Part shown: in pieces, positions 10,732 to 62,965 of the stretch | Position numbering within the stretch: the stretch's first letter is position 1 | How the letters are laid out: every line of letters begins with the position of its first letter | Origin: Eledone cirrhosa | Lineage: Eukaryota | DNA length: 64,000 nucleotides | NCBI GenBank assembly: GCA_964016885.1 | Contig: OZ024742.1 | Location: forward strand, 112,778,001-112,842,000 | Reading direction: 5' to 3' | The notes under the pieces: model-generated | What the model was told of the DNA's origin: nothing | The model's input: only the letters and a program-made list of their open reading frames with translations | The model's database searches: none | Made by a program: the position numbers and the translations under genes

Positions 10732-10808
10732 TTTGTACCGTCCTGTATTGTCCTGCACTGTCAATAATGTCTACTTTATGTAAACCCTTTGTGGTTAATA
10801 AAGAAATC
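10732..10808 (+). mobile_element. Tx1-family 3' UTR stub (extreme 5' truncation)
   Basis: Matches the last ~77 nt of the element at 17923-23838, ending AATAAAGAAATC before a degenerate (ATT)n. Confidence 0.9.
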
Positions 10809-10854
10809 ATTATTAATATTAATATTATTATTAATATTATTATTGTTGTTATTA

Positions 10855-11109
10855 CTCTTTGAGTTTCAGTCATTGATGTTAGTTAACTGGAAAGTTTGTT
10901 GAAATGAATATCAAGCCACTACCTGCAGCCTCAGATATTCAGGACGTATCGGAAGGTTCTTGCTGTTCCCAGCAAGCATGCCTTTTGAAGCGTACCTAAA
11001 AGCGTGAAGGGGCAAATTTTCTTTAACCATCCACGGAAACTTTTTGAGATAGTCCCTAGTGCGCCTATGACAATCGGGATCACTTTGACTTCATGGCAGT
11101 TCCAAATCC
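10855..11109 (-). mobile_element. Dong/R4 family A, 255-bp 3' stub
   Basis: Near identical to 11182-11436; flanked on both sides by (TTA)n. Confidence 0.92.
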
Positions 11110-11110
<1 letters not shown>

Positions 11111-11174
<64 letters not shown>

Positions 11175-11181
11175 GTTATTA
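11111..11181. repeat. (TTA)n target microsatellite
   Basis: Direct reading; lies between two Dong copies. Confidence 0.97.
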
Positions 11182-14100: not shown

Positions 14101-15026
14101 CTACCACTAAGTTTAGGATATCTACCAAATCTTGTCCTAGCCCGTCAGCATTCATCTCTTCAGTGGCCCTATCTCTGTTCCAGGTATTATTTATCTCACC
14201 ATTCAGATCATTGTCTGTTTCGGGTGGTTCCTCCGTTCTCTCGACCTCTTCACCTTCATTTCCCACTGGCTCGTTTGCCTGGCATACTCCACCCTCCATC
14301 TCCAAACTAATCCCTCTGCCCAGTTCTTCCAGATCCAGCTCGCTTATCCACCCATTAGTTCTTATTACCCGAGCCTGCCCGGCCAGTTTTTGTTCATCTA
14401 ATTTAAATGGACCAATCTCGTTCCAGATGTTATGCATCCTTTTCCTATAGCCTTTCTCCTTGGGGTTACTCTTCAGGTAACATTGCCTAACAGTTCTATT
14501 CAATTATTTCGTCCAGTTGGTTCTGGTCCCTTTCCATTTTCTTCTTCCTCCGAAAGCAGCAGTATTTGGTTGACAGCCAGGTCCCTGCTGCTGAGCCAGG
14601 GAGCACCTGTTGGCTGAGAGTCTGTCACATGACATTCTAGTCTCCATTTCACCGTTATTCGAACTGTTTAGGTTCGACATTTAAACACTTTTTCGAGGAT
14701 TGGCGAATGTATGGTTACATAACAACCGGTGAATTACTTGTCTCCGGTGGTTTCGTCACTCCACGTGACTTTTGTGTGGCTTTATCACGCTGCAGACGAA
14801 CCCAAACAAACAAACAATCAGGCAGAAAAAAACCCAAAATGAATGAGTATAGGTTTCATTGTAATGTACTGTTTGAATGTCTGACTTAATTTTTCCCTTC
14901 CCTTCTCTGTCCGTCCGTTTGTTTTTCTTTTCATTTTTATTTCCATTTACGTTTTTCGTTGTTGCTTTACTGCTTTGATTTTGATTTTTTAAAAACATTT
15001 TTTTTAAATTATTTTTAGTTATTTTT
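11182..15026 (-). mobile_element. Dong/R4-clade RLE non-LTR retrotransposon, family A, full-length but disabled (5' boundary uncertain between ~14830 and 15026)
   Basis: Single broken ORF with RT and RLE domains; ends in (TAA)n on the sense strand. Confidence 0.9.
11258..14680 (-). pseudogene. Family A RT-RLE polyprotein with several stops and frameshifts
   Basis: ATG at 14680 (MSNLNSS...); KSPGPDG, YRPITCL, DYKKAFD, FQGDSLSP, LFMDDLK, YKYLG, CRIC..H..SEC, RHD, RPDL..DVACP, ending YVLNI*. Confidence 0.9.
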
Positions 15027-17430: not shown

Positions 17431-17433
17431 ATT

Positions 17434-17661
17434 TGGGAGAGGGCACTTGCCCTGGTGGTCATGGCCACTGTGGTCTTTTAATGGGCTTTCTCCACAAATG
17501 TCCCTCGGAAGTCTCCCCCCATATTGGGGAATTTTTCTTTGTTATTTTATTTCAACCTCTGTTTTTTTTACACGCAGAAATGCCCATTTGTACCGTCTTG
17601 TATTGTCCTGTACTGTCCTTATTGTCTACTTTATGTAAACCCTTGTGGTTAATAAAGAAAA

Positions 17662-17662
<1 letters not shown>
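17434..17662 (+). mobile_element. Tx1-family 3' UTR stub
   Basis: Matches 23594-23838; preceded by a single ATT and followed by (ATT)n. Confidence 0.9.
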
Positions 17663-17712
<50 letters not shown>

Positions 17713-17722
17713 AGTGCGCTTA

Positions 17723-17900
17723 CTCCACGAATGTCCCTCGGAAGTCTCCCCCGTATTAGGGAATTTTTCATTGTTATTTTTTTGTTACATCCTCTGTTTT
17801 TGTTTTTTACACGCAGAAATGCCCATTTGTACCGTCCTGTATTGTCCTGCACTGTCCTTAATGTCTAGTTTATGTAAACCCTTGTGGTTAATAAAGAAAG
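17723..17900 (+). mobile_element. Tx1-family 3' UTR stub
   Basis: Matches ~23650-23837; between (ATT)n tracts. Confidence 0.9.
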
Positions 17901-18131
17901 TATTATTATTATTATTATTATTGGCGACCTACGTAGGAAATCGTATTATCGTGAGCTCCGCAAAGGTTTGTTATTTCCGTTTGTTTAAACATTGCCATTT
18001 ATGGAAAATTTTATTGTAAACTGTTTATAAGCACACATACATTGTTTTCCGAAAAGGACACCCAAAAAGATTGGGGCCTTGTGCCCAAAATTTTAACTTT
18101 TATTATTATCCAAAAATTTCTTTGAAAAAAA

Positions 18132-19637
18132 ATGGCTAATTCCCCTCTGCACGAAGCAGCTGAAAGCCTTCCTCACAAAATAACACCTCACACCGACACC
18201 ACCATTGTAAATGTTACTACGTTTGCCAACACAAAAAAAAATATAAGCAGTAACAATATTTTAAATTTGTCTCAGGCAGACATTCATTTCCCGCCATTAC
18301 CAATGACTGCAGGTGTTAAACCCTCCACCACCACCACCACCGCGACAACCACCACCACCACCACCACCACCACCGCGACAACAGAAACAAAAGAAGAAAA
18401 AAATAAATTAACTCGTGACGTCGAAATGAAATCAAGCAAAATGGACTCTTCCCCACCAAAGACGACTGACGTCACCACCACCACAACTGAAAATAAAATT
18501 AATATCAACGATAGCAACAACAACAACAATGACATTATAAAACCGACCCTCAGTTTCGCCATCGTAGCAAAACAATTCGAAGCGTTCACGGTAACTCAAG
18601 AAGATTTAGAAAATGCCAAACAAATGGTAAAGAAAGATGGGTACAGGGTCAGCCTCCCCCCCCCACCTAATAAAATGGAGCATCGGCGCCTGTGCACCGT
18701 GTCGTATAGAACAATAAATGTAAAATCGCGCCGAGTGGAACGGGCATCCGAGTCCCAAATCCAAAAAGCTTTGGGACATGTGTGGGCAAGAAAAACCCAC
18801 ATCAGACGTGGGCAAAAGTATGGAACCGTGGATGTGTTCTTTGAAACACCAGAGGAGGCTAGAGAACACTCCATGGCCCCATTAAAAAGTGACGACCTCA
18901 CACTCGTCCCAAGCTATTGTGGCCAGAGACTCGTAAATATCAGGGTGACCCACGTTCCACCGGCCATCGAAATTCCCTGGCTAATAGCGGCTGTCCTCAC
19001 CGGCATCGAAGCCAACACGAAAATAATAGCAGTAGCAAAAGAAAAGCAGGAAAACTGGTCCGGATCTGGGATGGAGCTCCTGATCCAAGCGGACCAAAAA
19101 AGCATTGAGGAGATCCCAGAGGTAATAGACCTCACTGACGGCAGCCACCTCACGGTAATTGTCGAGGGCAGAAGACCTAGGTGTGTCGTTTGTGGTGAAG
19201 GAACCCACCTAAGGGCTTTCTGCCCTCAGGCTAGAAGGTTGAGGCCACCTCTCCTACCCACCCCAGTGACAAAACCATCAACACCACCAGTAGCAGAGAT
19301 GGCAGCAACAACTGTAGCAGCAACAACAGAAGCAACTATAACAGCAACAACCCCAGCAACAGTAGCAAAACCAACACCACTACCACCACCAGCAAAACCA
19401 ACACCACCACCACCCAACGCTTCAGAACTAGCACCAGCGCCTACACCATCCACCACACCACAACCAAAACTAACGGCTGTGGAGGATTTTCCACTCCCCG
19501 GCCTATCACAACTGGAGACAGATTGTGACGACGAGGAGTGGGAAACGATATCCGGAAAAAAAAAAGAAACCAAAAAAGAAAAAATGCTCTTCCTTCCCCC
19601 TCCAAAAACAAAATACAGAGGGAAACAAATAAACTAA
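18132..19637 (+). CDS. Tx1 ORF1 (gag-like nucleic-acid-binding protein), 501 aa
   Basis: Open frame with RRM-like segment (YGTVDVFF, VNIRVTHVP), zinc knuckle CVVCGEGTHLRAFC, Pro/Thr-rich linkers and the EEWETISGKKK motif. Confidence 0.85.
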   Translation: MANSPLHEAAESLPHKITPHTDTTIVNVTTFANTKKNISSNNILNLSQADIHFPPLPMTAGVKPSTTTTTATTTTTTTTTTATTETKEEKNKLTRDVEMKSSKMDSSPPKTTDVTTTTTENKININDSNNNNNDIIKPTLSFAIVAKQFEAFTVTQEDLENAKQMVKKDGYRVSLPPPPNKMEHRRLCTVSYRTINVKSRRVERASESQIQKALGHVWARKTHIRRGQKYGTVDVFFETPEEAREHSMAPLKSDDLTLVPSYCGQRLVNIRVTHVPPAIEIPWLIAAVLTGIEANTKIIAVAKEKQENWSGSGMELLIQADQKSIEEIPEVIDLTDGSHLTVIVEGRRPRCVVCGEGTHLRAFCPQARRLRPPLLPTPVTKPSTPPVAEMAATTVAATTEATITATTPATVAKPTPLPPPAKPTPPPPNASELAPAPTPSTTPQPKLTAVEDFPLPGLSQLETDCDDEEWETISGKKKETKKEKMLFLPPPKTKYRGKQIN

Positions 19638-20122
19638 GAAACAAAAAAGTTAGGACAGATATGCCACCATCCACACCAGCATCACCAACCCCATCAACCC
19701 AAACACCAACACCATCACCATCATCATCCCCAGCACCACCATCACCTACACCACAAAAGTCACCAAAAAGCGAAACAGAAACAAACCCACAACAAACGCA
19801 AACAAAACAAAACAACCAAAACGATACACACTACACAGCATTAAATTTGAACAACAAGCAATTATTACACTACATCAAACACAACACCAGCATCACAGAA
19901 AAAGACTACACAACAACCCCAAAATTCACACCACCTCCACACATACAAATCACTCGCATCACACAGAAAACGTACATGACACTAAAACAAAAATTCCCCA
20001 AAGACATCGGAGACTTCCGACAAGCACTCTCCAGGAGGATTTATAAGGACATCCTTCCTGGGGAGGCCACAAGCAGTGAAAAGGATGGAAAAGCCGTCCT
20101 TCCCCTACGAGAAGTAAGGTAA
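19538..20122 (+). CDS. Tx1 ORF1 C-terminal segment in the -1 frame (ORF1b; first ATG at 19660)
   Basis: Pro/Ser/Thr linker then a segment (LLHYI.HNTSITEK...LKQKFPKDIGDF) conserved in all four long copies; stops 34 nt before the ORF2 ATG. Confidence 0.6.
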   Translation: MGNDIRKKKRNQKRKNALPSPSKNKIQRETNKLRNKKVRTDMPPSTPASPTPSTQTPTPSPSSSPAPPSPTPQKSPKSETETNPQQTQTKQNNQNDTHYTALNLNNKQLLHYIKHNTSITEKDYTTTPKFTPPPHIQITRITQKTYMTLKQKFPKDIGDFRQALSRRIYKDILPGEATSSEKDGKAVLPLREVR

Positions 20123-20156
20123 GTGGTCTTTCCCATCTTTTCCACTCCTTTTCAAC

Positions 20157-23100
20157 ATGACCTCACTCAGAATAGGCAGCATAAATGCGCGTGGCTTGGG
20201 GTCGTCATGGAAGCAGGGCCACCTGCTCAACGACCTCAGGTCACTAAACATAGATGTAGTGGCCATCAGCGAGACCAGAATCTCCGAAGCACAGGCTTTC
20301 GCACCGATCTTCGGCGGCTAGGATGTGTACGCATCTCCCAGCCGTCCGGGATCGGGGGGAGGAGTTGCTGTGCTTTTTCGGAGAGGTTTGGATCTTGCCA
20401 TACGGGCCATCTTCCTGGACCCAGAAGGTAAGTTGGTGGTGCTGGACGTGACCAGCGGAGACGGGCAAGCTTTCAGGTTAGTGGCCGTCTATGCCCCGAC
20501 AGGAGCAGGGCGGCCTGATTTCTTCCGGCGTCTGGAGACCTTTCTTGGAACGTCCCGCTCTTTAGTGTTAGTGGGCGACTGGAACGGGATCTTAGATGCA
20601 CGCTGGGATTGTGTGGGATTAGTGGATAGGGAAGGAGGGTGCAAGAGTCTCACCAACCTGCTCAGACGTTTTGAACTGTCTGACAGGTACCGAATGGATT
20701 TCCCGAATGTACCAATGTGGACTTGGACAAATCGCATAGGGTCATCCAGATCATATCTAGATAGAGTATTTTGTAGGGAAATAGATAGGTCTAGCATAGG
20801 CTGTCCACAATTCAAGATAGTCAGCTACACGGACCACAAATTCGTGATCTGTGTGCTTGACTTAGATAGGCTTCATAGACGAGGACCCGGCTACTGGAAG
20901 CTAAACGCGTCCTTACCAGCGCGCAAGGCCTACAGAGACCGGATTAGCGAACTAGTTAAGCGGGCGTTGACGGGGGCCATCGTCAACAACAAGTGGTGGT
21001 TTGCTCTGAAAAGAGCAATTAGAATAGAGTCCATTAGGTTTAGTAAGACTTTAGCAATAGAGAAAAATAGAGCAGAGGGAGAATTAGTTAGAAAATTAGA
21101 TGAGGCGCTTAGCAAAGGCATCGCGACCGACGTACTTGCGGCGAAATTGGCCCTTGACCAATTCTTCAATGCAAAGCACGAAGGCTGCGTTGTCAGAGCT
21201 AGGGTGCGTGCTCTCAGACACGAGGGGACGAAAGCCGTTGAATGGGCCCGAGTGGCGGAGGCGCGTCGTGGCAGCAAAGCCACGATCCGGTCTTTGGTGG
21301 ACCACGACGGGCGCATGCTACTCGATCCCGGGCAAATGTGTGAAGCTTTTCAGCGACACTTCGCTCAACTGTTCGGGGGCAGTGGCGGGCCGGATCAAGG
21401 GATGGACTTTAGTGTCTACCTCGACGGACTGCCGCGGCTTTCGGCCACTGAGGCGGAGTGTTGCGAAAAGCCGATAACAACCGCTGAAGTACGGGATGCA
21501 ATGACTAGTTGCACAAGGGGCAAATCGCCTGGTTTGGATGGTCTGCCCTATGAACTTTACGTACAAATGCCAAACTTGTTCGGAGGCCTCTTGGCGGACG
21601 TCTACTGCAACTGGCAACAGAACGGGAGAATTCCCAGCTCTGTGAGCCGAGGAGCGGTGGCGCTGCGGAGAAAGGATCCGAACAAGGGGGATAACATAGA
21701 TAATTTTAGGCCCATAACTCTGCTAAACACAGAGTTCAAGATTTTGGCCAAGGTGCTAGCAAACAGGTTGGCGCTTGTCGTTGGTGGTCTGGTGGGAGAG
21801 GCACAGACATGCGCCATTCCCGACAGATCCATCCACGACAACCTCCACCTCATGCGATACATCGTAGAGAGGGTAGCTAGGGAACCTGGCACGGGTGGGT
21901 CTTTGATCAATTTAGATCAGTCGAAAGCCTTCGATAGGGTCGACCATCGTTACCTAACGGCAGTCGTGAGGGCGGCTGGCTTTGGGCCCGTCTTCAGAGG
22001 CTGGATCGCTGCCATGCACAGCGACGTCTGCTCTGTAGTGAGAGTGAACGGTCCTCTTTCGGAACCGTTCAACATCATGCGCTCGGTCCGCCAAGGATGT
22101 CCCCTCTCGTCCCTATTGTACGTATTGACTCTCGAGCCATTACTGCACAAACTGGAGACGTTGAGGGGGGTCCCGCGCGAACTAGGATGCGGAAGATCCG
22201 TGTCAGCATATGCCGACGATGTCACCGTAGTGGTGTCGAACGCCAAACACATCGAGGCGATCGGCACTACACTAAGAGAATACGAAGCGGTGACAGGAGC
22301 AATGATCAACCAGGAAAAGTCAGTGGGCCTGCAGCTCGGCACCTGGAGAGGCAGGTCCATGCCGTCCAACAGCGTCGTCTGGCGCTGGACGGACGGACCG
22401 GTTAAATTGCTAGGGGTCTGGTTCGGTACAGACCTCCAGACGGACAAAAACTGGGACGAGGTGACGAGCAGGGTGGCATCTCTCACCCAGAAATGGGCCG
22501 AGAGGAAGCTATCCCTGAAAGGTCGAGCGGAGGTGGCGAATGCGTACATCGCATCCGTCATCTACTACCGCCTGACCGTCGTACCTTGTCCTAAGCCCCG
22601 TTTGACTGCGCTGGAGCGTTTGCTCTTTCGCTTCTTGTGGAAGGGACGCGCTCCGATGGTCAGGCGGTCCATCTGCTGTCAACACCCGCTACGTGGAGGG
22701 CTGGGCATGCCGTGGCTGATGATGCGCAGACACGCGCTCAGGCTACGACATCTCCACCTCTTCCTCGACGGTGATCAGGTGTGGTCGCCGTTTGCAAGAC
22801 ACGTTTTTCCCCAGCTCGTCTCCTTGACGGAGCTGCAGTCCTGGGTCAAGCGAAGACCGAGAGGGAGCGCTTGGAGACTGGAATGTCTTCAGGCGCTCAC
22901 AGCCCTCGACCAATCGGGCAATGTGATCGGTGGAAACTCCACCTTGGCGTTCTATAGGGGATTAGTGGAGGGGAAGAGCGACGACGTACTTGGAGAAACT
23001 CTAGGCGTCGACGAAAATCAACTAGCCAATCTCTTCGGAAGGACTTTCGGGCCGGGGCCTATGGACAACTTCCAGAAATCCCTGGCCTGGCAGTGCTACC

Positions 23101-23576
23101 GAGGAGCTTTGCCAGTTCGGGATAAACTCTACAGGCATGGAGGTGCCGTCAGCCGGGCATGTCCGAGATGCGCGCAGGGCGACGAAACCGTCCTGCACGC
23201 ACTCGTCCAGTGTCCGAAAATTGCTGACTTGTGGGTTTATGTCGAACACCTGCTGTCGCGTTTAGGACGGATCCAGCTATCATCTGAGTCTATCGTGAGG
23301 ATTGCCCCGCCCTCCTCCTTTAGCCGGGAAGGGCAGGCAGTTTTTATCTGTCTGGTGGCCATGGCGAAAGAGATAGTATGGTGGACACGTTTGAAAGGGC
23401 TGAAGACGAGCACTTACCTCTTCGGTGATGCTCTGATTGACTTTTTCAAATTTCATTTGAAAAGGAAAATCAGAGTAGAGAAGGAAGTGCTCTCTTCCCA
23501 GCATTTTGTTGAAAGATGGGTGAGAGAAGCAAGAATGGCCCGAGTGAATGGGCCGACTCTGAGTATATATCTGTAA
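20157..23576 (+). pseudogene. Tx1 ORF2 (APE endonuclease, RT, CCHC), 1139 codons with one in-frame TAG at 20319-20321
   Basis: MTSLRIGSINARGL, ISETR, YAP, GDWN, SYLDRVF, TDH (APE); PGLDG, RPITLLN, DQSKAFDRV, RQGCPLS, YADD (RT); CPRC..ETVLHALVQC. Sister copies have TAC/TAT at the stop codon. Confidence 0.92.
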
Positions 23577-23836
23577 ACTAAAGGTGGAAAACTGGGAGAG
23601 GGCACTTGCCTTGGTGGTCAGGGTCATTGTGGCTTTTTACTGGGCTTTCTCCACAAATGTCCCTCCGAAGTCTCCCCCCTATTGGGGAATTTTTCATTGT
23701 TATTTTCATTGTTATTTTTGTTACATCCTCTGTTTTTGTTTTTTTACACGCAGAAATGCCCATTTGTACCGTCCTGCATTGTCCTGCACTGTCCTTAATG
23801 TCTACTTTATGTAAACCCTTGTGGTTAATAAAGAAA

Positions 23837-23838
<2 letters not shown>

Positions 23839-23876
<38 letters not shown>

Positions 23877-23890
23877 TATTATTATTATTA
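23839..23890. repeat. (TTA)n target microsatellite
   Basis: Between the Tx1 3' end and the Dong B 3' end. Confidence 0.97.
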
Positions 23891-26800
23891 CAGTTGGATT
23901 TATCTTGCTTTATCTTCATACGAGTTATCACCAAGTCACAACCAGTGACCTCAACAGACAACAAGGTCCGCCATGTTCAAGAAAGAACATACATACTCAC
24001 ACATGCATCTTTAGTGTTTAGACTTGTGATGTACTTATATTGACAGAATCTTCCTTAGTATATGGGCAGTTCCCATTAGTACTATCTTTTCTATTTCTCC
24101 TATACGCGGGTTTCCTGGGATTTGCGATAAGTAATCATTAGACCCCTTATGTATCATTCCCAGAGCGCCTACAACCACTGGTATTGTTTTAGTTCTCAAT
24201 TTCCACATATTTCTAATTTCTATCTCCATGTCCTTATACTTGCTCGATTTTTCAAAATGTTTTTATAGATACATTCTTGTCTATTGGAACGGACATATCA
24301 ATTATCAGGCAGACCCTCTTTTTAAAGTCCTTCGATATTATATCAGGTCTGTTTGCATCTATTTTTCGGTCTGTTTGGATGCTAACGTTCCACAAGATTG
24401 AGATGTGATCTTTTTCAAGTATGGGAGGTGGTTGATGCTCCCACCAATTCTTTTGATGGGGCAGGTCAATATGCTTACACATTATCCAATGTATGTATTG
24501 TGCAGCTCTGTCATGCCTGTTTAGGTATTCGGTTGGAGCTATAGGACTGCACATTGAAATGATATGGTCAATGGTCTCTGTTTGTTTTTTGAATAAAGAG
24601 GTATAATGGGCTGCATCCATTTTTTATTATGTTGGCTTGGTAATATTTTGTTGGCAGACACTGACCTTGTGTTGATATAATCAGTCCTTCAGTCTCCGAT
24701 TTCAGTCCAGAGGATGCCAACCACTGATGGGTTAAAGTTTTGTCAACATCAGGATTGTTAGCTCGCTCTGGGTATTTTCCATACAGAGGCTTTTCTTGCC
24801 ATTGCTTAGCCAGTTTCTGTAGCAGTTCGTTCTCTGCAGTTACTTTTACCTGCTTTGCTTTGTCTGTGTTTTCCATTTCAGCTGTAAATGGGACTTCTGA
24901 AATTTGTAGTCCATTACTGTATCTTTGTGCATATTTTGTAATGGAATATGATCTTTTGATGCATTCGTGTTTCAAAACGAGTTTGATCATCCAATCATGT
25001 GATTCCCTTAGATATGTAGATAATCCAATTGTTGCAGTTTTCAACGCAATGTCTAACTGGATTAACCCACGTCCTACTTCTTTCCTAGAGAGATATATTC
25101 TATCTATATCTGCCTTAGGGTGATGCATTCTGTGCATGGTTAAGAGTTTTCGAATTTTTGTATCGAGCCTACGGATCTCTGTGCTTGACCAGTTGATGAC
25201 ATTGTAACTGTAGGTTACTACTGGTATGGCAAGCGTGTTTATGGCATCGGTCCTATTCTTTGAATTCAATTCCGTTCTTAAGATTGCTCTTACTCTGCGG
25301 TAACATTCCTTCCTTATCCTTTCCCTCATTGTCGAGTGCTTGATTCCGTCTCCTTCACAAACACCTAGATATTTGTAAGTTTTTTCTTGATCAAGTTCTC
25401 TTATCACGTTCCCCCGATCAAGATTAATGTCTGAACTCTTCAGCAGCTTTCCTCTGTGAACGTTGCTTTGGCGCATTTGTCTAGTGCAAACTCCATTTTA
25501 ATGTCATCACTGAACCGCTCCACAGTGGATAATAGCCCTTGCAATTGTTCATCATTTTTGGCAAATAGTTTCAGGTCATCCATGTAGAACAGGTGATTAA
25601 TGGTTTTCTCATAGATTTTATATCCATGTTATGTTTCATTGAGCATTTTACTTAATGATGTAAGTGCGATGCAGAATAAAAGCGGTGATAAAGAGTCAAC
25701 CTGAAAAATTCCACAATTAATATTAACTTCTCCAGCTTCCAGTGATTTTGTTTCACTATTCAAAGGGAGTGTCGTTTTCCATGTCTTCATACTGAATGAC
25801 AAAAATCTCCTGACAACGGGGGATATTTTGAAAATCTCTAAACATTTTTCAATACAACTGTGTGGCAAACTATTGAATGCTTTTTTACAATCTATCCAAG
25901 CAATCGATAGATTTTTGTGTCTATTATGACAATCTTCCAGTATCATTTTGTTAACCAGAAGCTGATCCTTATAGCCATATGAGCCTCGTTTACACCCTTT
26001 CTGCTCAATGGGAAATAAGTCATTTGTTATCAGGTGGTCATATGTGTATTCAGTTAGTACTGATGTTAAAATTTTATACATTGTGGTCAAGCAAGTTATC
26101 AGTCTGTAATTTTTGGGATTGTTTGTCTCATCATTCTTCGGAATCAGGAATGTAATGCCGTTAACTAGCCATGATGGTATATTTTCTGGCTCCTTAACTA
26201 TTTCATTGTAAAGTTGGGCTAACAGCTCATGAGACTCTGCGAAGGCATTTATCCAAAAGTTTTGTATATTGTCTTTTCCTGAGGATTTCCATTTGCTGGT
26301 TTTTCTTAGAGCCAAGCGCAACTGTTCAACTGTTATATTTTCCCATATTTGTTCCTCAAGGTGAGCTGTATCTTTCATTTGTCTGTCTATCCATGGGGCA
26401 TGTATGCTATGAACTTTTTCTTCGGCTCAGATCTCTTCCCAGAATTCTTGCACTTCCTCCTTGGGTGGTATTGACTTAGCAGTTATTGTTGACTTACCAA
26501 TTTTTCTGTAGAAGTTTCTTTGGTTGTTTTTGAACATATTATTGTCCTTATAGAATCTTGATCGTTTTTCAAAGCGCCTTATACGAGCAGCTTTGGCCGA
26601 CACTTTTTGTTTGATTATTTCTATCAGCATGTCTATGTCACTTGTTGATTTTATTCTGTACTTTTTTTTCAATTTTCTAAGTATAGTTTGTTTAACATGT
26701 TCACCTACTTTATAGTTTGTTAACATTTCTATATCAGATCGGAGAAGGTTTATTTGGCGGTTGATGTTCTCTTGCCAAGTAGATTTCTTGTGGGAATTCC

Positions 26801-27846
26801 TTTGTTTTTTCATCTTCACTCCACATAAGTGAGTGGTGACTTTAGCCGATGCATAATAGAGATGATTTAAATCAGTAATGTTTAGTTTGTTTGTGATGAT
26901 AATGTTTTTGAGAATTATGTTAGTCTTGTGTATTATCTTTTGGTTCTGTTTGGAGTTCTGGATCTTAGGGTGGGTGTCTCGTTGCCCGATGTCAGATTCT
27001 TTCATTTTCATCCATTCGATCATAATTTCCTCCTTCAAGTTGGCAAATTCATTCTCATTCATTTCTTTATCATTTACGATCTCATTATTTTCCTTTGGAG
27101 TTTCATCTTGAGCATGCACTCCCTCCACTTTTTCGATCCTTTCTTTAATTTGTTCTGTTGCCAATGATTCCGCCCCAACCCTGGGATTCGAAGTGTTACA
27201 ATTTACCTCTTTTTCACTGACACATGTTTCATTTTCCCTTCGCTGACTTTGTGCTAATAGCTTGATCTGATCAATTTCTATATCAGTTAGTAACATTTTT
27301 CTTACAATATTTCTTCGTATATTGGCTAGTTTGTTGCTGTCAATATAGCCTCTGTTTTCGGGATGTTTCTTTTTCCAGTTGATATATGTCTGTTCTGTAT
27401 TCGATGTATTTGATGGGTAGTACATGGCAGTGTAGAAAGCCTCAAGGACATCTTTATTATCTTCCCTTGACCATTTTTCTCTCTCTTTCTTTGGATTTCT
27501 TGGTGGTGAGCATGGAGTGCCAACAGTAGGAGTATTCCGGTTATGGGAGGTCTCCAGCTCCGAAGTGATGGGAAGGTTTGAACCATTAGCTGATTTTTCG
27601 ACCCCAGTCTGGTTCCTCTCTGAGTGAAGCGGCCCTTTTTTACCCGGGTGACGGCCGATCCGGTATGATATTTTATCATTAGACATTTACTTTATTTTGT
27701 TGCGTTTTATCCTTATCCGCCAAGGGGTAATCATTTCGTGTTACCACTTTTAGAACGAGTGTCAACCAAGACTAGAGGGGTCGTTCTCCCCTAGAGACAC
27801 GGCTATTCCCCGCCGGCCGCCATCCCGGTATTTCTTGGTCACGGGG

Positions 27847-27848
<2 letters not shown>
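23891..27848 (-). mobile_element. Dong/R4 family B, full-length, disabled
   Basis: ~160-nt leader, ATG at 27686, ORF pieces 26427-27686, 25629-26378, 24568-25476, 24252-24620, 24035-24229; (TAA)n on both sides. Confidence 0.93.
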
Positions 27849-27883
<35 letters not shown>

Positions 27884-30800
27884 GGCGATCTACTTAGTAA
27901 ATCGTATTATCGTGAGCTCCGCAAAGATTTGTTATTCTCAGTTGTTTAAAAATGCCATTATTGGAAAATATTTATGGTTAAATTTATATAAGTGCACATA
28001 CATTGTTTTCTGAAAAGGACACTCAAAAAGATTGGGGCCTTGAGCCCAAAATTTAAACTTTCATAATTATTAAACAAAAGAAAAATGTCTTTGAAAAATC
28101 ATGGCCGACTCACAGCTGAACCCAGTAGCTGAGAGCCTTCGTCACAAACAAACACCTCACACCGACACCACCATTGTAAATATTACTACGTTTGCCAACA
28201 CTAAAAATATAAGCAGTAGCAATATTTAAATTTGTCTCAGGCAGACATTCATTTGCCGCCATTATCAATGACTGCAGGTGTTGAAGCCGCCACCCACCAC
28301 CACCACCACAGCGACAACAGAACCAAAAGGAAGACATAAATTATCTCGTGATATCGAAACGACTTCAGCCAAAATATACTCTTCCACACCAAGATAATCG
28401 AAATAGCGAAAGAAAAGCAGAAGAACAGGTCCGGATCTGGGATGGAGCTCCTGATCCAAGCGGACTAAAAAAGCATTGAGGAGATCCCAGAGGTAATAGA
28501 CCTCACTGACGGCAGCCACCTCACCGTAATCGTCGAGGGAAGAAGGCCTAGGTGTGTCGTTTGTGGTGAAGGAACCCACCTAATGGCTTTCTGCCCTCCG
28601 GCTAACAGGTTGAGGCCACCTCCCTTACCCACCCCAGTGAGTCAACCATCAACACCACCAGCAGCATAAATGGCAGCAACAACTATAGCAGCAACAACAG
28701 TATCAACTGGAACAGCAACAAAACCCAGCAACAGAAGCCAAACCAACACCACCACCACCCAACGCCCCAGAACTAGCACCAGCGCCTACACCATCCATCA
28801 CGCCACAACCAAAACCAACGCCTGTGGAGGATTTTCCACTCCCTGACCTATCACAATTGGAGACAGATTGTTACGACGAGGAGTGGGAAACGGTATCAGG
28901 AAATGAGAAAAAAAGAAACCCAAAAAGAAAAATTCTCTTCCCTCCCCCTCCAAAAACAAAATACAGAAGGTAACAAATAAACTATCAAACAAAAAAGTTA
29001 GGACAGATATGCCACCATCCACACCAGCCTCACCAACCCCATCACCACAAACACCAACACCATCACCATCATTAACCCCAACACCACCATCACCAACACC
29101 ACAAAAGTCACCAAAAAGCGTAACAGAAACAAACCCACAACAAACGCAAACAAAACAAAACAACCAAAACGATACACACTACACAGCATTACATTTGAAC
29201 AACAACCAATTATTACACTACATCCAACACAACACCAGCATCACAGAAAAAAACTACACAACAACCCAAAAGTTTACACCACCTCCACACATACAAATCA
29301 CTGGCATCACACAGAAAACGTACACGACACTAAAACAAAAATTCCCCAAAGACATCGGAGACTTCCGACAAACACTCTGCAGGAGGATTTATAAGGACAT
29401 CCTTCCAGAGGAGGCCACTACATCTATGTTTAGTGCCCTCAGGTCACTAAACATAGATGTAGTGGCCATCAGCGAGATCAAAATCTCCGAGGCACTGGCC
29501 GTCTCACCGATCTTCGGAGGCTACGATGTGTACGCATCTCCCAGCCGTCTGGAATCAGAGGGGGGGGGGGTCGCTGTGCTTTTTCGGGGAGGTTTTGATC
29601 TTGGCATACGGGCCATCTTCCCGAACCCAGAAGGTAAGTTGGTTGAGCTAGACATGACCAGCGGCGACGAGCAAGCCTTCAGTCTAGTGGCCGTCTATGC
29701 CCCGACAGGAGCAGGGCGGCCTGATTTCTGCCGGCGTCTGGAGACCTTTTTTGGAACGTCCCGCTCTTTAGTGTTAGTGGGCGACTGGAACGGGATCTTA
29801 GATGCTCGCTGGGACTGTGTGGGATTAGCGGATAGGGGTGGAGGGTGCAAGAGCCTCACCAACCTGCTCAGGCGTTTTGAACTGTCTGACAGGTACCGAT
29901 TGGATTTCACGAACGTGCCAATGTGGACTTGGACAAATCGCATAGTGTCATCCAGATCATATCTAGATAGAGTATTTTGTAGGGAAATAGATAGGTCTAG
30001 CATAGGCTGTCCACAATTCAAGATTAGTCAGCTACGCGGACCACAAATTCGGGATCTGTGTGCTTGACGTAGATAGGCTTCATAGACAAGGACCTGGTAC
30101 TGGAAGCTAAACGCGTCCTTACCAGCGCGCAAGGCCTACAGAGACAGGATTAGCAAACTAGTTAAGCGGGCATTGACGGGGGCCATCGTCAACAATAAGT
30201 GGTGGTTTGCTCTGAAAAGAGCAATTGAACAGAGTCCATTAGGTTTAGTAAGGCTTTAGCAATATAGAAAAATAGAACAGAGGGAGAATTAGTTAGAACA
30301 TTAGGCGAGGCGCTTAGCAAAGGCATCGCGACCGACGTACTTGCGGCGAAATTGGCCCTTGACCAATTCTTCAATGCAAATCACGAAGGCTGCGTTGTCA
30401 GAGCTAGGGTGCGTGCTCTCAGACACGAGGGAACGAAAACCGTTGAATGGGCCCGAGTGGCGGAGGCGCGTCGTGGCAACAAAGCCACTATCCGTTCTTT
30501 GGTGGTCCACGATGGGCACATGCTACTCGATCCCGGGAAAATATGTGAAGCTTTTCAGCGACAATTCGCTCAGTTTTTCGGGGGAAGCGGCGGGCCGGAT
30601 CGAGGGATGGACTTTAATGTCTACCTTTACGGACTGCCTCGGCTCTCGGCCACTGAGGCGGTGTGTTGCGAAAAGCCGATAACAGCCGCTGAAGTACGGG
30701 AAGCAATGACTAGCTGCACAAGGGGTGAATCGCCTGGTTTGGATGGTCTACCCTATGACCTTTACGGACAGCTGCCAGACTTGTTCGGAGGCCTCTTGGC

Positions 30801-32868
30801 GGACGTCTACTGCAACTGGCAACATAACGAGAGAATTTCCAGCTCTGTGAGCCGAGGAGCTGTGGCGCTGCTGAGAAAGCATCCGAATAAGGATGATAAC
30901 ATAGATAATTTTAGGCCCATAAATTTTCTAAACACAGAGTTCAAGATTTTGGCCAAAGAGGTTGGCGTTTGTCGTTGGTGGTCTGGTGGGAGAGGCGCAA
31001 CCTTCACCTCATCGATACATCGTAGAGAGGTTAGCTAAGGGAACCTGGGCGGGTGGGTCCTTGATCAATTTAGATCAGTCGAAAGCTTTCGATAGGGTCG
31101 ACCATCGTTACTTAGCCGTAGTCCTGAGTGCGGCTGGCTTTGGCCCGTCTTCAGAGGCTGGATCGCTGCCATGCACAGCACATCTGCTCTGTGGTGAGAG
31201 TGAACGGTCACCTTTCGGAACCGTTCAACATCATGCGCTCGGTCCGCGAAGGATGTCCTCTCTCGTCCCTCTTGTACGTATTGACTCTCGAGCCATTACT
31301 GCACAAACTGGAGACGTTGAGGGGGGGTCCCGCGCGAACTAGGATACGGAAGATCCGTGTCAGCATATGCGGACGTTGTCACCGTAGTGGTGTCGAACGC
31401 CAAACACATCGAGGCGATCCGCACTACACTAAGAGAATACGGTGGCAGGAGCAAAGATCAACCAGGAAATGTCAGTGGGCCTGCGCTCGGCACCTGGAGA
31501 GGCAGTTCCATGCCTTCCAATAGCGTGTCGGGCGCTGGACGGGCGGACCAGTTAAATTGTCTGGTTCGGTCCGGATCTCCAGACGGACAAATACTGGGAC
31601 GACGTACGAGCAGGGTGGCTTCTTTCATCCAGAAATGGGCGGAGAGGAAGCTATCCCTGAAAGGTCGAGCGGAGATTGCTAACGCGTATATCGCGTCCGT
31701 CATCTACAACCGCCTGACCGTCGTACCTTGTCCTAAGACCCGCCTGACTGTGCTGGAGCGTTTTCTCTTTCGCTTTTTGTGGAAGGGACGCGCTCCGATG
31801 GTCAGGCGATCCATCTGCTGTCAACAGCTGCTACGTGGAGGGCTGGGAATGCCGTGGCTGATGATGCGTAGACACGCGCTCAGGCTACAACATCTCCACC
31901 TCATTCTCGACGGTGATAAGGTGTGGTCTCCGTTTGCTAGACGCGTCTTTCCCCAGCTCGTCTCCTTGACGGAGCTGCAGTCCTGGGTCAAGCGAAGACC
32001 GAGCGCTTGGAGACTGGAATGTCTTCAGGCACACAGCCCTCAACCAATCGAGCAACGTGATCGGTGGAAAATCAACTAGCCAATCTCTTCGGAGGAACTT
32101 TCGGGCCGGGCCTCTGGACAACTTCCAGAAATCCCTGGCCTGGCAGTGCTACCGCGGAGCTGTGCCAGTTCGGGATAAACTCTACAGGAATGGAGGTGCC
32201 GTCAGCCGGGCATTTAAGAGATGCGCGCAGGGCGACGAAACCGTCCTGCATGCAATCGTCAGTGTCCGAGCATTGCTGACTTGTGGGCTTATGTCGAACA
32301 CCGTGTAGGACTGATCCAGCTATCAGCTGGGTCCATCGTGAGGATTTCCCCGCCCTCTTCCTTTAGTCGGGAAGGGCAGGCAGTTTTTATCTGCCTGGTG
32401 GCCATGGCGAAAGAGATAGTATGGTGGACACGTTCGAAAGGGCTGAAGACGAGCACTTACCTCTTCGGTGATGCCCTGATTAACTTTTTCAAATTTCATT
32501 TTAAAGGAAAATCAGAGTAGAGAGGGAAGTGTTCTCTTCCCCCCACTTTGTTGAAAGATGGGTGAGAGAAGCAAGAATGGCCCGATTGAATGGGCCTACT
32601 CTGAGTATGTGTCTGTAAATTAAAGGTGGAAAACTGGGAGAGGGCACTTGCCTTGGTGGTCAGAGTCATTGTGGCTTTTTAATGGGCTTTCTCCACGAAT
32701 GTCCCTCGGAAGTCTCCCCCCTATTGGGGAATTTTTTCATTGTTCTATTATTACATCCTCTGTATCTTGTTTTTTGCACTCAGAAATGCCCATTTGTTCC
32801 GCCCTGTATTGTCATGTACTGTCCTTAATGTCTACTTTATGTAAACCCTTGTGGTTAATAACGAAATC
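27884..32868 (+). mobile_element. Tx1 copy 2, both ends intact, internally deleted and frameshifted
   Basis: Collinear with 17923-23838; deletions near 28392, 29420 and 32070; (ATT)n on both sides. Confidence 0.93.
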
Positions 32869-51300: not shown

Positions 51301-51617
51301 CCGAATCTTGTCCTAGCCCGTCAGCATTCATCTCCTCAGTGGCCGTATCTCTGTTCCAGGTATTATTTATCTCAGTATTCAGATCATTGTCTGCTTCGGG
51401 TGGTTCCTCCGTTCTCAGGACCTCCTCACCTTCATTTCCCGCCGGCTCGCTTGTCTGGCATACTACACCCGCCATCTCCAAGCCATTCTCTCTGCTCAGT
51501 TCCTCCAGTTCCAGCTCGCTTATCCACCCATTAGTTCTTATTACCCGAGCCTGCCCGGCCAATTTTTGTTCATCTAATTTAAATAAACCAATCTCGTTCC
51601 AGATGTTATGCATCCGT

Positions 51618-51620: not shown

Positions 51621-51659
<39 letters not shown>

Positions 51660-52941: not shown

Positions 52942-55699
52942 GGCGACATACGTAGGAAATGGTATGATCATGACCTCCGCAAAGGTTAGTTGTTTTTAGT
53001 TGTTTCAAATTCCCATTTATGGAAAATGTTTCTTGTTAAATGTTTATAAATTCATACATATTGATTTCGGGAAAGGACACTCAGCCCAAAATTTAAACTT
53101 TTATAATTACAAAAAATAATTTCTCTGAAAAATCATGGATTACTCACAGCCCCAGCAGGCTGACGGCCTTCCTCACAGACTAACACATCACACCAACACC
53201 ACCACTGTAAATATTACTACGTTTGCCAACACTAAAAATATAAGCAGTAACAATAATTGAGATTTGTCTCATGCAGACATTCATTTCCCGCCATTACCAA
53301 AAACTGCAGGTGTTAAAGCCGCCACCCCCACCATCACCACAGCGACAACAGAAACAAAAGAAAAGAATAAATTATTATCTCGTGACATCGAAATGGATTC
53401 ACCCATAATCGACACTTCCACACCGAACACCACTGACGCCACCACCACCACCACAACTGGAACTAAAATAGCAATAACAAAAATAACAAAAACCACAACA
53501 GCAACAACAACCATGAAAATAACAACAAAAACATCAACACCACCGCAAATGTGCCTTTTGCCAAAACAGCCAAGAAATGCGAAACAATCGAAGTAACTCA
53601 GGAGTAATTAAATGAAGCCAAGAGAATGGTAAATAAAGATGGGTATAGGGTCAGCATAGCCCCCACCCCACCTAATATCATCGAGCATCGGCGTCTAAGC
53701 ACCGTGTCTTATCGGACGATTAACACATCCGCGTCCCAAATCCAAAAAGCTTTGGGATATGCGTGGGCAAAAAAGCCCACACCAGACGTGGGCTGAAATA
53801 TGGAACCGTGGACGTGTTCTTTGGAACACCACAGGAGGCCAGAAGGAACTCCATGGCCCCATTAAGAAGCGACGACTTCACACTCGTCCCAAGCTATTGT
53901 GGCCAGAGACCCGTGAAGATCAGGGTGACCCACGTTCCACCGGCCATCGAAATTCTCTGGTTAATGGCGGCCGCCCTCGCCGGCATCGAGGCCAACACCA
54001 ACATAATTGAAATATCAAAAGAAAAGCTGGAGAACTGGTCCGGATCTGGGATGGAGCTCCTGATCCAAATGGACAATAAAAGAATTGAGGAAATCCCAGA
54101 GGTAATAGACCCCACAGACGGCAGCCACCTCACCGTAATCGTCGAGGGTAGAAAGCCTAGGTGTGTCGTTTGTGGTGAAGGCACCCACCTAAAGGCTTTC
54201 TGCATCAGTCTAAACAGTTGAGACCACCTCTCTATCCCACCCCACTGACACAACCATCAACACCACCAGCAGCAGAAATGGCAGCAACATCTGTAGCAGC
54301 AACAACAGAAGCAACTGTAACAACAAAAAACCCAGCAACAGTAGCAAAACCAACACCACCACCACCCACGGCGCCAGAACTAACACCAACGCCTCCACCA
54401 TCCACCCCGCCACAACCAAAACCAACTCCTGTGGAGCATTTTCCACTCCCGGTCCTATCGCAACTGGAGACAGATTATGACGACGAGGAGTGGCAAACTG
54501 TATCAGGTAAAAAGAAAAAAAAAAGAAGCCAAAAAAGAAAAAAAAATCCACTTACTCCCCCCTCAAAAAAATAAAATACAGAGGGAAACAAATAAACTAT
54601 CAATCAAACAAATTTAAGAGAGCTATGCAACCACCCACACCAGCATAACCAGCCCCATCACCCCAAACACCAACTCCATCACCAGCATTAACCCCACAAC
54701 CACCATCACCGACACCACAAAAATCCCCAAAAAGCGAAACAGAAACAAACCCACAACAAACGCAAACAAATCAACCAAAACGATAGACACAACACAGCAT
54801 TACATTTGAACAACAACCAATTATTACACTACATCCAACACAACACCAGCATCACAGAAAAGGACTACACAACACCCCACATTTTCACACAACCTCCACA
54901 CATACAAATCACTCGCATCACACATAATACGTTCACGGCACTAAAACAAAAGTTCCCCAAAGACATCGGAGACTTCCGACAAACACTCTCCAGGAGGATT
55001 TATAAGCACATCCTTCCGGAGGAGGCCACAAGCAGTGAACAAGGATGGACAAAACACCCTTCATCTACGAGAAGTAAGGTAAGTGGTCTTTCCCATCTTT
55101 TCCACTCCTTTTCAACATGACCTCACTTAGAATAGGCAGCATAAATGCGCGTGGCATGGGGTCATCATGGAAGCAGGGCCACCTGCTCAACGACCTCAGG
55201 TCACTAAACATAGATGTAGTGGCCCTCAGCGAGACCAGAATCTCCGAAGCACGGGCCTTCGCACCGATCTTCGGCGGCTATGATGTGTAGGCATCTCCCA
55301 TTCGTCCTGGATCGTGGGGAGGAGTTGCTGTGCTTTTTCGGAGAGGTTTGGATTTCGCCATACGGGCCATCTTCCTGGACCCAGAAGATGGGTTGGTGGT
55401 GCTGGACGTGACCAGCGGAGACGGACAAGCTTTGAGGCTAGTGGCCGTCTATGCCCCGACAGGAGCACGGCGTCTGGAGACCTTTCTTGGAACCTCCCGC
55501 TCTTTAGTGTTAGCGGGCGACTGGAACGGGTTCTTAAATGCACGATGGGCCTGTGTGGGATAAGCAGATAGGGGAGGAGGGTGCAAGAACCTCACTAACC
55601 TGATCAGGCGTTTTGAACTCTCTGACAGGTACCGATTGGATTTCCCGAATGTGCCAATGTGGACTTGGACAAATCGTATCGGGTCATCCATATCATATC
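52942..55699 (+). mobile_element. Tx1 copy 3, 5' half, decayed
   Basis: Starts ATT|GGCGACATAC; collinear with 17923-20757. Confidence 0.92.
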
Positions 55700-58999: not shown

Positions 59000-61704
59000 T
59001 CTAATGTTCTAACTGATTCTCCCTCTGCTCTCTTTTTACGCGTTTAGCTTCCAGTAGCCGGGTCCTCGTCTATGAAGCACATCTAAGTTAATCACACAGA
59101 TCACGAATTTGTGGTCCGTGTAGCTGACTATCTTGAATTGTGGACAGCCTATGCTAGACCTATCTATTTCCGTACAACATACTCTATCTAGATATGATCT
59201 GGATGACCCGGTACGATTTGTCCAAGTCCACATTGGCACATTCGGTAAATCCAATCGGTACCGGTCAGAGAGTTCAAAACGCCTGAGCAGGTTGGTGAGG
59301 CTCTTGCACCCTCCTCCCCTATCCGTTAATCCCACACAGTCCAAGCATGCATCTAAGATCCCGTTCCAGTCGCCCACTAAAGAGCGGGATGTTCTAAGAA
59401 AGGTCTCCAGTCGCCGGAAGAAATTAGGCCGCCCTGCTCCTGTCGGGGCATAGACGGCCACTAGCCTGAAAGCTTGCCCGCCTCAACTGGTCACGTCTGG
59501 CACCACCAACTTACCTTCGGGGTCCAGGAAGATGGCCCGTATGGAGAGAGCCAAACATCTCCGAAAAAGCACAGCAACTCCACCCCCCGATCCCGGACGG
59601 CTGGGAGATGCGTACGCATCGTAGCCGCCGAAGATCGGTGCGAAGGCCCGTGCTTCGGAGATTCTGGTCTCGCTGATGGCCACTAGATCTATGTATAGTG
59701 ACCTGAGTCGTTGAGCAGGTGGCTCTGCTTCCATGACAATCCGAAGCCACGCGCATTTATGCTGCCTATTCTGAGTGAGGTCATGTTGAAATGGAGTGGA
59801 AAAGATGGGATAGACCACTTACTTACTTCTCGTAGAGGAAGGATGTTTTGTCCATCCTTGTCACTACAAGTGGCCTCCTCCGGAAGGATGTGCTTATAAA
59901 TCCTCCTGGAGAGTGTTTGTCGGAAGTCTCCGATGTCTTTGGGAATTTTTGTTTTAGTGTCGTGTACGTTTATTGTGTGATGCGAGTGATTTGTATGTGT
60001 GGAGGCGGTGTGATCTTTTGTGTTGTTGTGTAGTCTTTTTCTGTGATGCTGGTGTTGTATTGGATGTAGTTTAATAATTGTTTGTTGTTAAAATTTACTG
60101 ATGTGTAGTGTGTATAGTTTTGGTTGTTTTGTTTGCGCTTGTTGTGGTTTGTTTCTGTTACGCTTTTCGGTGACTGTTGTGGTGTTGATGATCGTGGTGT
60201 TGGGCTTAATGATTGTGATGGTCTTGGTGCTTGTGGTGATGGGGTTGGTGCTGCTGGTGTGGATGGTGGCATATCTGTCCTAACTTTTTTGTTTGATAGT
60301 TTATTTGTTTCCCTCTGTATTTTGTTTTTTTGGGGGGAAGGAAGAGAATATTTTTTCTTTATTGGTTTCTTTTTTTCTTTTTTCCTGACACCGTTTCCCA
60401 CTCCTCGTCATCACAATCTGTCTCCAGTTGATGGTAGTGGAAAATCCTCAACAGATGTTGGTTTTGGTTGTGGCGTGGTGGATGGTGTAGGCGCTGGTGC
60501 TAGTTCTGGCGCGTTGGGTGGTGGAGGTGTTGGTTTTGCTACTGTTGCTGCGGTTGTTGTTGTTACAGTTGCTTCTGTTGTTGCTGCTACAGTTGTTGCT
60601 GCTATTTCTGCTGCTGGTGGCGTTGATAGTTGAGTCACTGGGGTGGGTAAGAGAGGTGGCCTCAAACTTTTAGCCTGAGGGCAGAAAGCCCTTAGGTGGG
60701 ATCCTTCACCACAGACGTCAAACCTAGGCCTTCTGCCCTCGACGATTACGGTGAGGTAGCTGCCGTCAGTGAGGTCTATTACCTCTAGGATCTACTCAAT
60801 GCTTTTATGGTCCGCTTGGATCAGGATCTCCATCCCAGATCCGGACCAGTTCGCCAGCTTTTCTTTCGCTATTTCGGTTATCTTGATGTTGGCCTCCATG
60901 CTGGCGAGGACGGCAGCCATTAGTCAGGGAATTTCGATAGCCGGTGGAACGTGGGTGACACTGATCTTCACGAGTCTCTAGCCAAAATAGCTTGGAACGA
61001 GTGTGTTGTCGTCACTTCTTAATGTCGCCATATAGTGTTTTCTGGCCTCCTCTTGTGTTTCAAATTACACTTCCACGGTTCCATACTTCAGCCCACGTCT
61101 GATGTGGGTTCTTTTTGCCCACACATGTCCCAACGCTTTTTGGATTTGCGACTCGGATGCCCGTTCCACTCGGCGCAATTTTATGTTAATTGTCCGATAA
61201 GACACGGTGCATAAGCGACGATGCTCCATTTTATTAGGTATGGGGGGTTAGGCTGACTCTGTACCCACCTTTCTTTACCATTCTTTTGGCATTTTGTAAT
61301 TCCTCCTGAGTTACCTGGATCGCTTCGCACGTTTTTGCTACTCTCGCAAAAGACAGGGTAGTTTTTTAATTTCATTGTTGTAGTTATCGTTTTTTTGTTA
61401 TTGTTAATTTTAGTTTCAGTTGTGTTGGTGGTGGCGTCAGTGGTGTTCGGTGTGGAAGAGTTCATTTTGGTTGAATTCATTTCGATATCACGACTAAATA
61501 TATTTTTTTCTTTTGTTTCTGTTGTCGCTGTGGTGGTGGTGGTGGTGGGGGTGGCGGCTTTAACACTTGCAATCATTGGTAATGGCGGGAAGTGAATGTC
61601 TGCCTGAGACAAATTTAAAATATTGCTACTGCTTATATTTTTAGTGTTGGCAAACGTAGTAATATTTACAGTCGTGGTGTCGGCCTGAGGTGTTAGTTTG
61701 TGAG
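59000..61704 (-). mobile_element. Tx1 copy 4, ORF1 plus APE region, decayed, both ends lost
   Basis: Reverse-complement match to ~18172-21100. Confidence 0.92.
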
Positions 61705-62912: not shown

Positions 62913-62915
62913 AAC

Positions 62916-62962
<47 letters not shown>

Positions 62963-62965
<3 letters not shown>

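Follow-up and report, generated by a model that had tools for sequence, protein, structure and literature searches.

Several Tx1 families of long interspersed nuclear elements (LINEs) are known to insert into microsatellites, namely Kibi and Koshi of teleosts and the crocodilian (TTCC)n and (TTTC)n families (PMC4494074). The mechanism of microsatellite targeting has been called not well understood (PMC3812793). TAA microsatellites are the target of Dong, described from silkworm, mosquito and snail; the same review lists Dong among the types with an apurinic/apyrimidinic endonuclease-like (APE) domain, R4 is placed among the clades with a restriction-like endonuclease in PMC4640811, and Dong-R4 is active in Octopus vulgaris. 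Here we describe a LINE of Eledone cirrhosa (genome size 3.0 Gb) that occupies (ATT)n arrays, starting from a copy in a stretch of 64,000 nucleotides (OZ024742.1:112778001-112842000), referred to as the window. It is a recently amplified, abundant, APE-type LINE of the L1 group.

Kibi, Koshi and the crocodilian Tx1 families are likewise APE-type L1-group LINEs in microsatellites, but their targets are (TC)n, (TTC)n, (TTCC)n and (TTTC)n. Tx1-Mar and SINEU of crocodilians combine a target-preferring Tx1 group with a short interspersed nuclear element (SINE) of the same preference (PMC4494074); their target is a Mariner transposon, whereas here the repeat array is taken by the LINE, and a SINE uses a short core site. 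The R1-clade LINEs SART1Bm and R1Bm are APE-type elements as well, and their RNA is believed to base-pair with the target at the nick; three repeats are required by SART1Bm (PMC7265360). Clade and targets differ, and SART1Bm retains the poly(A) tail which the Eledone element lacks. The I factor and RTE-type LINEs carry short terminal repeats such as TAA (PMC3747384), but as a 3' tail, whereas the LINE described here has its target on both flanks. A repeat library of O. vulgaris contains 80 L1-Tx1 families, 13 of them recently active (PMC13282606), and close relatives may be among them; in the available text of that paper and its supplement the word "target" does not occur, nor is a target of an L1-Tx1 family described. 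Searches of published papers, as distinct from Repbase and Dfam, yielded no ATT- or AAT-specific Tx1 or L1 element, and we consider it possible, though doubtful, that the family is already catalogued. The preference for (ATT)n is real and strong. The element is of a known kind, its target new.

(ATT)n arrays at both ends of the element

Genome-wide, 558 of 598 exact 5' starts of subfamily A (93%), to which the window copy belongs, and 1585 of 1628 of subfamily B (97%) were preceded by (ATT)3 in phase; among six exceptions inspected, five were arrays with one base changed and one was (ATT)2. The background amounted to 453 of 159,956 positions (0.28%) lying within 12 nt of (ATT)3, as sampled in 560 kb of arbitrary genome, so that enrichment is about 300-fold. 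To keep the sampling independent of the 5' flank, copies were chosen by their 3' ends, using 93 of the first 100 listed and omitting seven inner members of tandem stacks; the share of 3' ends with ATT rests on these loci rather than on a genome-wide count. By script calls, 57 of the 93 copies were full-length, 56 of them with (ATT)3 on the 5' side, and 36 were truncated, 14 of them with (ATT)3 at this position. On the 3' side, (ATT)3 was present in 85/93. A family is called target-specific in PMC4494074 if one sequence type makes up more than 20% of its flanks, a proportion exceeded by far at either end. Targeting of (TC)n or (TTC)n was not observed by this measure, (CTT)n being present at one flank of only three of the 93 copies (L179, L181, L220).

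The phase of the junction is fixed, with TATT|G at the 5' end of 53/57 full-length copies. The 3' ends of the Tx1 lineage were followed by ATT in 100 of 102 cases and by (AAT)3 in none. The youngest copies, which are 99% identical, were the strictest with respect to their ATT flanks. Poly(A) tails were absent, as the initial annotation of the window had noted for its copy; none of the 93 sampled 3' flanks opens with an A run.

The same annotation had read three 5' ends as (ATT)n|GGCGA (17923, 27884, 52942) and five 3' ends as AATAA(A/C)GAAA-NN|(ATT)n (10808, 17662, 17900, 23838, 32868). All eight were reread as described, with the qualification that the end at 17900 is equally readable as GT|ATT at 17901 and that the arrays following 10808 and 32868 are degenerate.

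Target or tail

The repeat is a target and not only a tail, as indicated by truncated copies, which often start in it, and by duplicated irregularities. Hand-sorting of the 36 script-truncated copies identified one (L231) as a full-length element with an internal deletion, leaving 35. Arrays hold the start of 15 of these: 13 called by script, L164, and L262, in which a short 5' inversion was recognized by eye. Another seven start at a short ATT site or an ATTA microhomology, with two pairs being likely duplicates. Both truncations seen among another 30 loci start in arrays, and both young full-length copies in the arbitrary blocks have ATT at each end. Irregularities of the target were found duplicated on both sides at five of 128 loci, three of them clean (L048, L172, L210), and by eye also at L185. 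Short sites of this type have no more than two ATT units in the 3' flank, so that no long tail is added. The other two of the five, L197 and L264, with apparent duplications of 34 and 42 nt, lie in arrays with repeated spacers and were set aside as ambiguous. Thus 5' truncation, target duplications and an occasional 5' inversion occur as in an L1-group non-LTR element. A 5' leader carried by the element received no support (2/92 versus 7/1814 shuffles).

Several observations do not fit so well. By hand-sorting, the 5' junction of 13/35 truncated copies is free of ATT: two join (CTT)n, one (AAT)n, five lie head to head inside R4-like elements, two join other Tx1-like sequence, and three are unassigned. 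Such junctions may represent later deletions or deletions of the target. Two young truncated copies of the arbitrary blocks, the only ones whose 5' junction can be seen, are without 5' ATT. In the window, ATT is likewise missing from the truncated 5' ends at 10732, 17434 and 61704 (minus strand), which the initial annotation had not mentioned. Of 13 interruptions near the 3' junction, ten are not mirrored on the 5' side, as would be expected if they lay beyond the duplication or arose later. Finally, the counts include duplicates formed at the DNA level; as the flanks beyond the arrays differ and the enrichment is 300-fold, these inflate the counts somewhat but cannot produce the pattern. On balance, (ATT)n is almost certainly the true target of the LINE, as had been claimed from the window alone. 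Tabulation of the genomic 5' and 3' flanks, a check proposed at that stage, showed ATT on the 5' side of most full-length copies, contrary to what a mere 3' tail would give.

At L192, L233, L246, L251, L254 and at position 17434 of the window, truncated LINE 5' ends are joined head to head to 5'-truncated R4-like elements, and an array between them is absent. The orientation was opposite in 5/5 cases, though R4-like DNA makes up about 4% of the arbitrary blocks.

Copy number, subfamilies and activity

The exact 37-nt 3' end was present 5990 times in a pattern search of the genome. Two different 5' halves are combined with one open reading frame 2 (ORF2): between subfamilies A and B, a DNA match is undetectable over the 5' untranslated region (UTR) and ORF1, the ORF1 products being 43% identical over 390 amino acids, while identity is 95% from just upstream of ORF2 onward. 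ORF2 is intact in 18/39 full copies of subfamily A and in 16/35 of subfamily B. Both ORFs are intact in at least three A and at least five B copies, an undercount because the test for ORF1 needed the exact start motif. The fraction of copies picked by their 3' end that reach the 5' end, 57/93, is unusually high for an L1-group element; for L1, a full-length share of 16% is given in PMC2912911.

One array (L140-L143; G000:C1:234586001-234626000) contains five head-to-tail units of subfamily B which are 99.5-100% identical, two of them being identical. A spacer of 250 bp is triplicated in this array, indicating that duplication at the DNA level is also at work. Two other copies (L207, L208; G000:C1:62859832-62859984) stand tail to tail over an (ATT)n(AAT)n junction.

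Near-identical sequence was present in sequencing runs of 17 organisms across 16 studies; in one of these (organism B), nine contigs run from the 3' end into ATT repeats. In the Eledone genome, additional distinct 5' ends follow ATT arrays (C1 -18077, -29661, -38729 and C3 -7786, and in the 3' flanks of L060 and L213), several with a TCGTGAGCTC-like motif as in subfamily A. A related type of 3' end was followed by (ATT)3 in 13/15 cases. More Tx1 families with the same ATT target are probably present in this genome.

Encoded proteins and clade placement

The ORF2 product matches PF03372, PF00078 and PF13966, i.e., an N-terminal APE, a reverse transcriptase (RT) and a C-terminal zinc-binding region. 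The catalytic residues N, E, Y, D, N and D of the APE align with those of the L1 endonuclease, and TDH is present in the translation. The RT is closer to human L1 ORF2p (115-117 bits) than to R2 (59-80 bits), as judged with a library without references for I, CR1 and RTE. The LINE is an APE-type non-LTR retrotransposon of the L1 group, without the poly(A) tail and the TT/AAAA target that characterize L1 of the mammalian type. ORF1 codes for one CCHC knuckle; a search for Pfam domains above cut-off and a homologue search gave no match, while its look-alikes in the Atlas were CCHC and ZCCHC3-type RNA-binding proteins (0.88-0.93). An ORF1 with RNA-binding domains and a CCHC knuckle is a mark of Tx1 elements, a clade to which the family may belong.

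Among named proteins, one from Argonauta hians is closest (73% identity over the RT), which makes an octopod the likely host. A quick tree built from 52 RT rows, without the named elements Tx1L, Keno, Kibi, Koshi and Dewa, united the family, P0002 and the Argonauta protein in a clade (SH-aLRT support 100), which joined 17 other proteins (SH-aLRT support 100) apart from fish and turtle proteins. This topology suggests an independent origin. Viral contigs contained no relative, and metagenome contigs mostly distant ones (25-36%).

DNA of the sister group was available from one binned assembly, CAXXMW01 (L290-L345, L352), which is filed as a bacterial metagenome-assembled genome and comprises many contigs of tandem 6.5-kb LINE arrays; these arrays are likely animal host DNA. 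Over ORF2 the sister elements share 40-41% identity with the family. Like it, they have no poly(A) and form head-to-tail stacks, but their units are joined without a repeat spacer and (ATT)3 was found at none of 36 distinct ends. Since the sister clade shares the absence of poly(A) and the stacking but not the ATT target, the former two are likely older, and the target was likely gained on the octopod branch, as far as one outside source can tell. The β-hairpin loop of the APE, tied to target choice in PMC1950540, has the length of that of human L1 and is shorter than the Tx1L graft. Within the family it hardly varies (81 of about 98 readings), in contrast to the sister clade, where it is variable.

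A SINE and a probably short core site

A SINE of 184 bp with a weak tRNA-like head had 85 matches in the 560 kb, often in tandem (e.g., 99481-99664, minus strand, in the C4 block of L130-139, besides the 84 further matches). Its 3' ends open with ATTAT in 63/84 cases. Non-simple duplications of at least 9 nt were found at 23/49 SINEs as compared with 98/1443 shuffled pairs. Nineteen non-tandem duplications measured 10-30 nt, mostly 10-19 nt, and C or T preceded the site in 19/19, versus a background of 62% (p 1.3e-4). About six of the 19 look spurious, due to short spacing or an array, which weakens the argument drawn from them; all ten duplications spaced like a whole SINE still have C or T when judged by eye. 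Insertion of the SINE at isolated (C/T)|ATTAT sites with duplications of 10-19 bp indicates that the core site is likely short (5-6 bp). SINE 5' ends touched (ATT)3 in 10/51 cases, which matches the supply of sites, 397 of 2210 YATTAT sites (18%) being located in arrays, whereas the LINE uses arrays in more than 90%.

The SINE tail motif GGCCTTGTGCC weakly resembles the tails of the octopod LINEs (the alignment was reached by 25/500 and 4/500 shuffles) and stands exactly near 3' ends of the sister clade. Judging from this shared motif, the SINE is likely a partner of the LINE lineage, but an older or different family could also have moved it.

Mechanism of target choice

Full-length copies are specific for arrays, their orientation and phase are fixed, their flanks are derived from the target, and poly(A) is lacking. 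We propose, as the reading slightly favoured over all others together, that endonuclease and RNA act jointly. The endonuclease would act first, nicking the short sequence 5'-ATAAT/R-3' on the AAT strand (T/A within an array). The RNA would run past AAUAAA into the donor flank and thus carry AUUAU or (AUU)n right behind the element end, and this stretch would pair with the freed primer. Copying would then begin before any poly(A), the orientation would be set, and isolated sites would lose to long arrays. A second nick about 10-19 nt downstream, a distance seen for the SINE and presumed for the LINE, would fall at TT/A within an array and leave the fixed junction ATT|G. Each insertion would duplicate part of the array and leave fresh sites, favouring head-to-tail stacks. 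There are precedents for such a division of labour: L1 priming requires a match of at least four bases and works in concert with the site choice of the endonuclease (PMC3649969), and addition of the target-like AGG raised accurate priming by SART1Bm from 36% to 76% (PMC7265360). It counts against joint control that no RNA run was found among the sequencing runs with near-identical sequence; the read-through transcript is presumed.

The initial annotation had proposed that the APE itself recognizes the TAA/TTA repeat. That the repeat is the target holds true; the APE as sole recognizer is less well founded, since the SINE suggests a core of 5-6 bp that lies mostly outside arrays, and RNA pairing explains the pattern equally or jointly. 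Recognition of an extended ATT/AAT repeat on both strands by the APE alone, through sequence or shape, with pairing being incidental, is a possible but clearly less probable mechanism. It would account for the fixed 5' phase, it has a parallel in the Tx1L endonuclease, which in vitro nicks its own target almost exclusively (PMC1950540), and it agrees with the hairpin loop being near-invariant in the family but different in the sister clade without ATT use. However, LINE fragments and the SINE occur at isolated ATTA(T) sites, and the loop has the length known from L1 rather than the longer one of Tx1L and TRAS1 (PMC1950540). Moreover, an L1-type preference for TTTT/AA (PMC2912911) would favour the ATT strand for the first nick, while the orientation observed is always the reverse.

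At the other extreme, a relaxed endonuclease cleaving any T/A step could leave the selection to pairing, as a self-perpetuating memory of the donor flank. This would explain at once the fixed orientation, the absence of poly(A) and the difference between SINE and LINE, but it is improbable in view of the C or T at position -1 of 19/19 SINE sites, although the last base of the SINE is A: the preferred base lies on the side of the nick that RNA cannot select, and the preference thus is outside the paired region. Still less credit is due to the notion that ATT belongs to the element, as a 3' tail plus a 5' leader from read-through of tandem neighbours. Many copies do stand head to tail, making such leaders possible, and the 13 truncated copies without 5' ATT would fit; but the flank is common to two unrelated 5' UTRs, most truncated copies start in arrays or at short ATT sites, target irregularities are duplicated, and the leader test was negative. 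It is equally hard to credit that the pattern was made by insertion at random with later selection, or by tandem copying of a handful of founder loci at the DNA level. The triplicated spacer with two identical units and the repeated flanks of L007/L008, L185/L186, L281/L282 and L264/L271 do demonstrate duplication, but most loci differ in the sequence outside the arrays, the youngest copies are the strictest, and the enrichment is far too high. Even taken together, these last two readings, which treat the pattern as an artefact, have little probability.

Features of the window

The window copy (Table 1) is 97-98% identical to 39 genomic copies chosen as best matches to its 5' end. It had been described as nearly intact with a single nonsense codon in ORF2. 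Indeed ORF2 contains one stop, at a position where TAC is present in 86/91 motif matches (all collected loci, repeats included); ORF1, however, is also frameshifted, with A10 in place of the A11 found in 19/30 matched full copies, so that this copy is doubly broken. The last 111 nt of its 3' UTR showed no significant fold (z -1.0), and an Rfam search of the window gave no match. A second (ATT)nACAGT sequence at 17663-17715 resembles that behind the 3' end of the copy, and the two likely represent a target duplication around 17716-23838. Positions 10809-11435 contain a 327-bp near-tandem repeat built of ATT arrays and R4-like 3' ends.

Table 1. Sequence features of the Eledone cirrhosa window (OZ024742.1:112778001-112842000)
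Feature	Position	Strand	Remarks
Full-length LINE copy, subfamily A	17923..23838	+	5916 bp; junctions read
5' (ATT)7 array	17902..17922	+	junction ATT|G; doubles as 3' flank of upstream truncated copy
5' UTR, subfamily A	17923..18131	+	unrelated UTR stands here in subfamily B
ORF1, split by frameshift	18132..20122	+	frames 18132-19637 and 19529-20122; shift in A10 run 19556-19565
CX2CX4HX4C knuckle in ORF1	19182-19223	+	sequence motif
ORF2: APE endonuclease, RT, zf-RVT	20157..23576	+	RT ~21687-22418; zf-RVT ~23076-23234
Nonsense codon TAG in ORF2	20319-20321	+	ORF reading
Predicted βB6-βB5 hairpin loop of APE (TNRIGSSR)	20727..20750	+	alignment to 1vyb, 2v0r, 2v0s
3' UTR, 262 bp, without poly(A)	23577..23838	+	AATAAA at 23827-23832; element end 6 nt after
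3' (ATT)17 array, then ACAGT	23839..23894	+	
5'-truncated copy	17434..17662	+	5' end head to head with R4-like element, without ATT
5'-truncated copy	17716..17901	+	flanked by ATT arrays on either side
Older subfamily A copy, internally deleted	27884..32868	+	ATT at both ends
Older copy, 5' half only	52942..55699	+	after (ATT)14
Copy without either end	59000..61704	-	ATT absent at both breaks
77-bp 3' fragment	10732..10808	+	3' ATT degenerate; 5' ATT none
Dong/R4-like element	23890..27850	-	(TAA)n on both sides; arrays shared with two Tx1 copies
Dong/R4-like elements	11407-14503, 15187-17477, 24568-27686, 48432-52458 (minus), 62887-63975		

Dong/R4-like elements in the same arrays

At least two Dong/R4-like families are represented in the window, many copies having (TAA)n on both sides even if 5'-truncated. 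They are so labelled because their ORFs encode an RT followed C-terminally by a PD-(D/E)xK stretch, with similarity to R2 proteins, as in the ORF at 48432-50150 (minus strand), and because of their (TAA)n flanks. Among 65 arrays of the arbitrary blocks and the window, 20 had an R4-like 3' end, 11 a Tx1 3' end and ten a SINE-type end beside them, as assigned by motif rules (one of the ten SINE labels is false). Dong and the LINE described here thus share a duplex repeat, and R4-like elements occupy the very arrays of the LINE. Dong/R4 elements, however, possess a restriction-like nuclease and a single ORF, whereas the LINE has an N-terminal APE, two ORFs, the opposite orientation and target duplications; with none of 102 ends followed by (AAT)3, it does not belong to this group. 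R4-like 3' ends were followed by (TAA)3 in 16/18 cases and those of the Tx1 lineage by ATT, implying that first strands are primed on opposite strands. The convergence on Dong's target envisaged by the initial annotation therefore applies to the duplex repeat, but not to the strand or orientation in which it is used.

Implications

The system bears on the question of how endonuclease and RNA-primer pairing share in the aim of site-specific LINEs, and it comes with built-in contrasts: young copies by the thousand, some with ORF1 and ORF2 naturally intact (L048, for instance); one ORF2 combined with two different 5' ends; a SINE, its likely partner, with a short core; a sister clade that does not use ATT; and an unrelated nuclease which enters these arrays from the opposite strand. 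The position of many ATT microsatellites in this genome, namely at retroelement ends, is likewise explained. A further idea, which we regard as tentative, is that the target is largely written by the LINE's own read-through RNA, such that the machinery would display a preference for 5-6 bp with SINE RNA and a near-absolute array specificity with its own (AUU)n RNA. If so, each insertion would program the next, an APE-based element would have reached the microsatellite of Dong independently, coming from the opposite strand, and the family would constitute a natural RNA-retargetable integrator.

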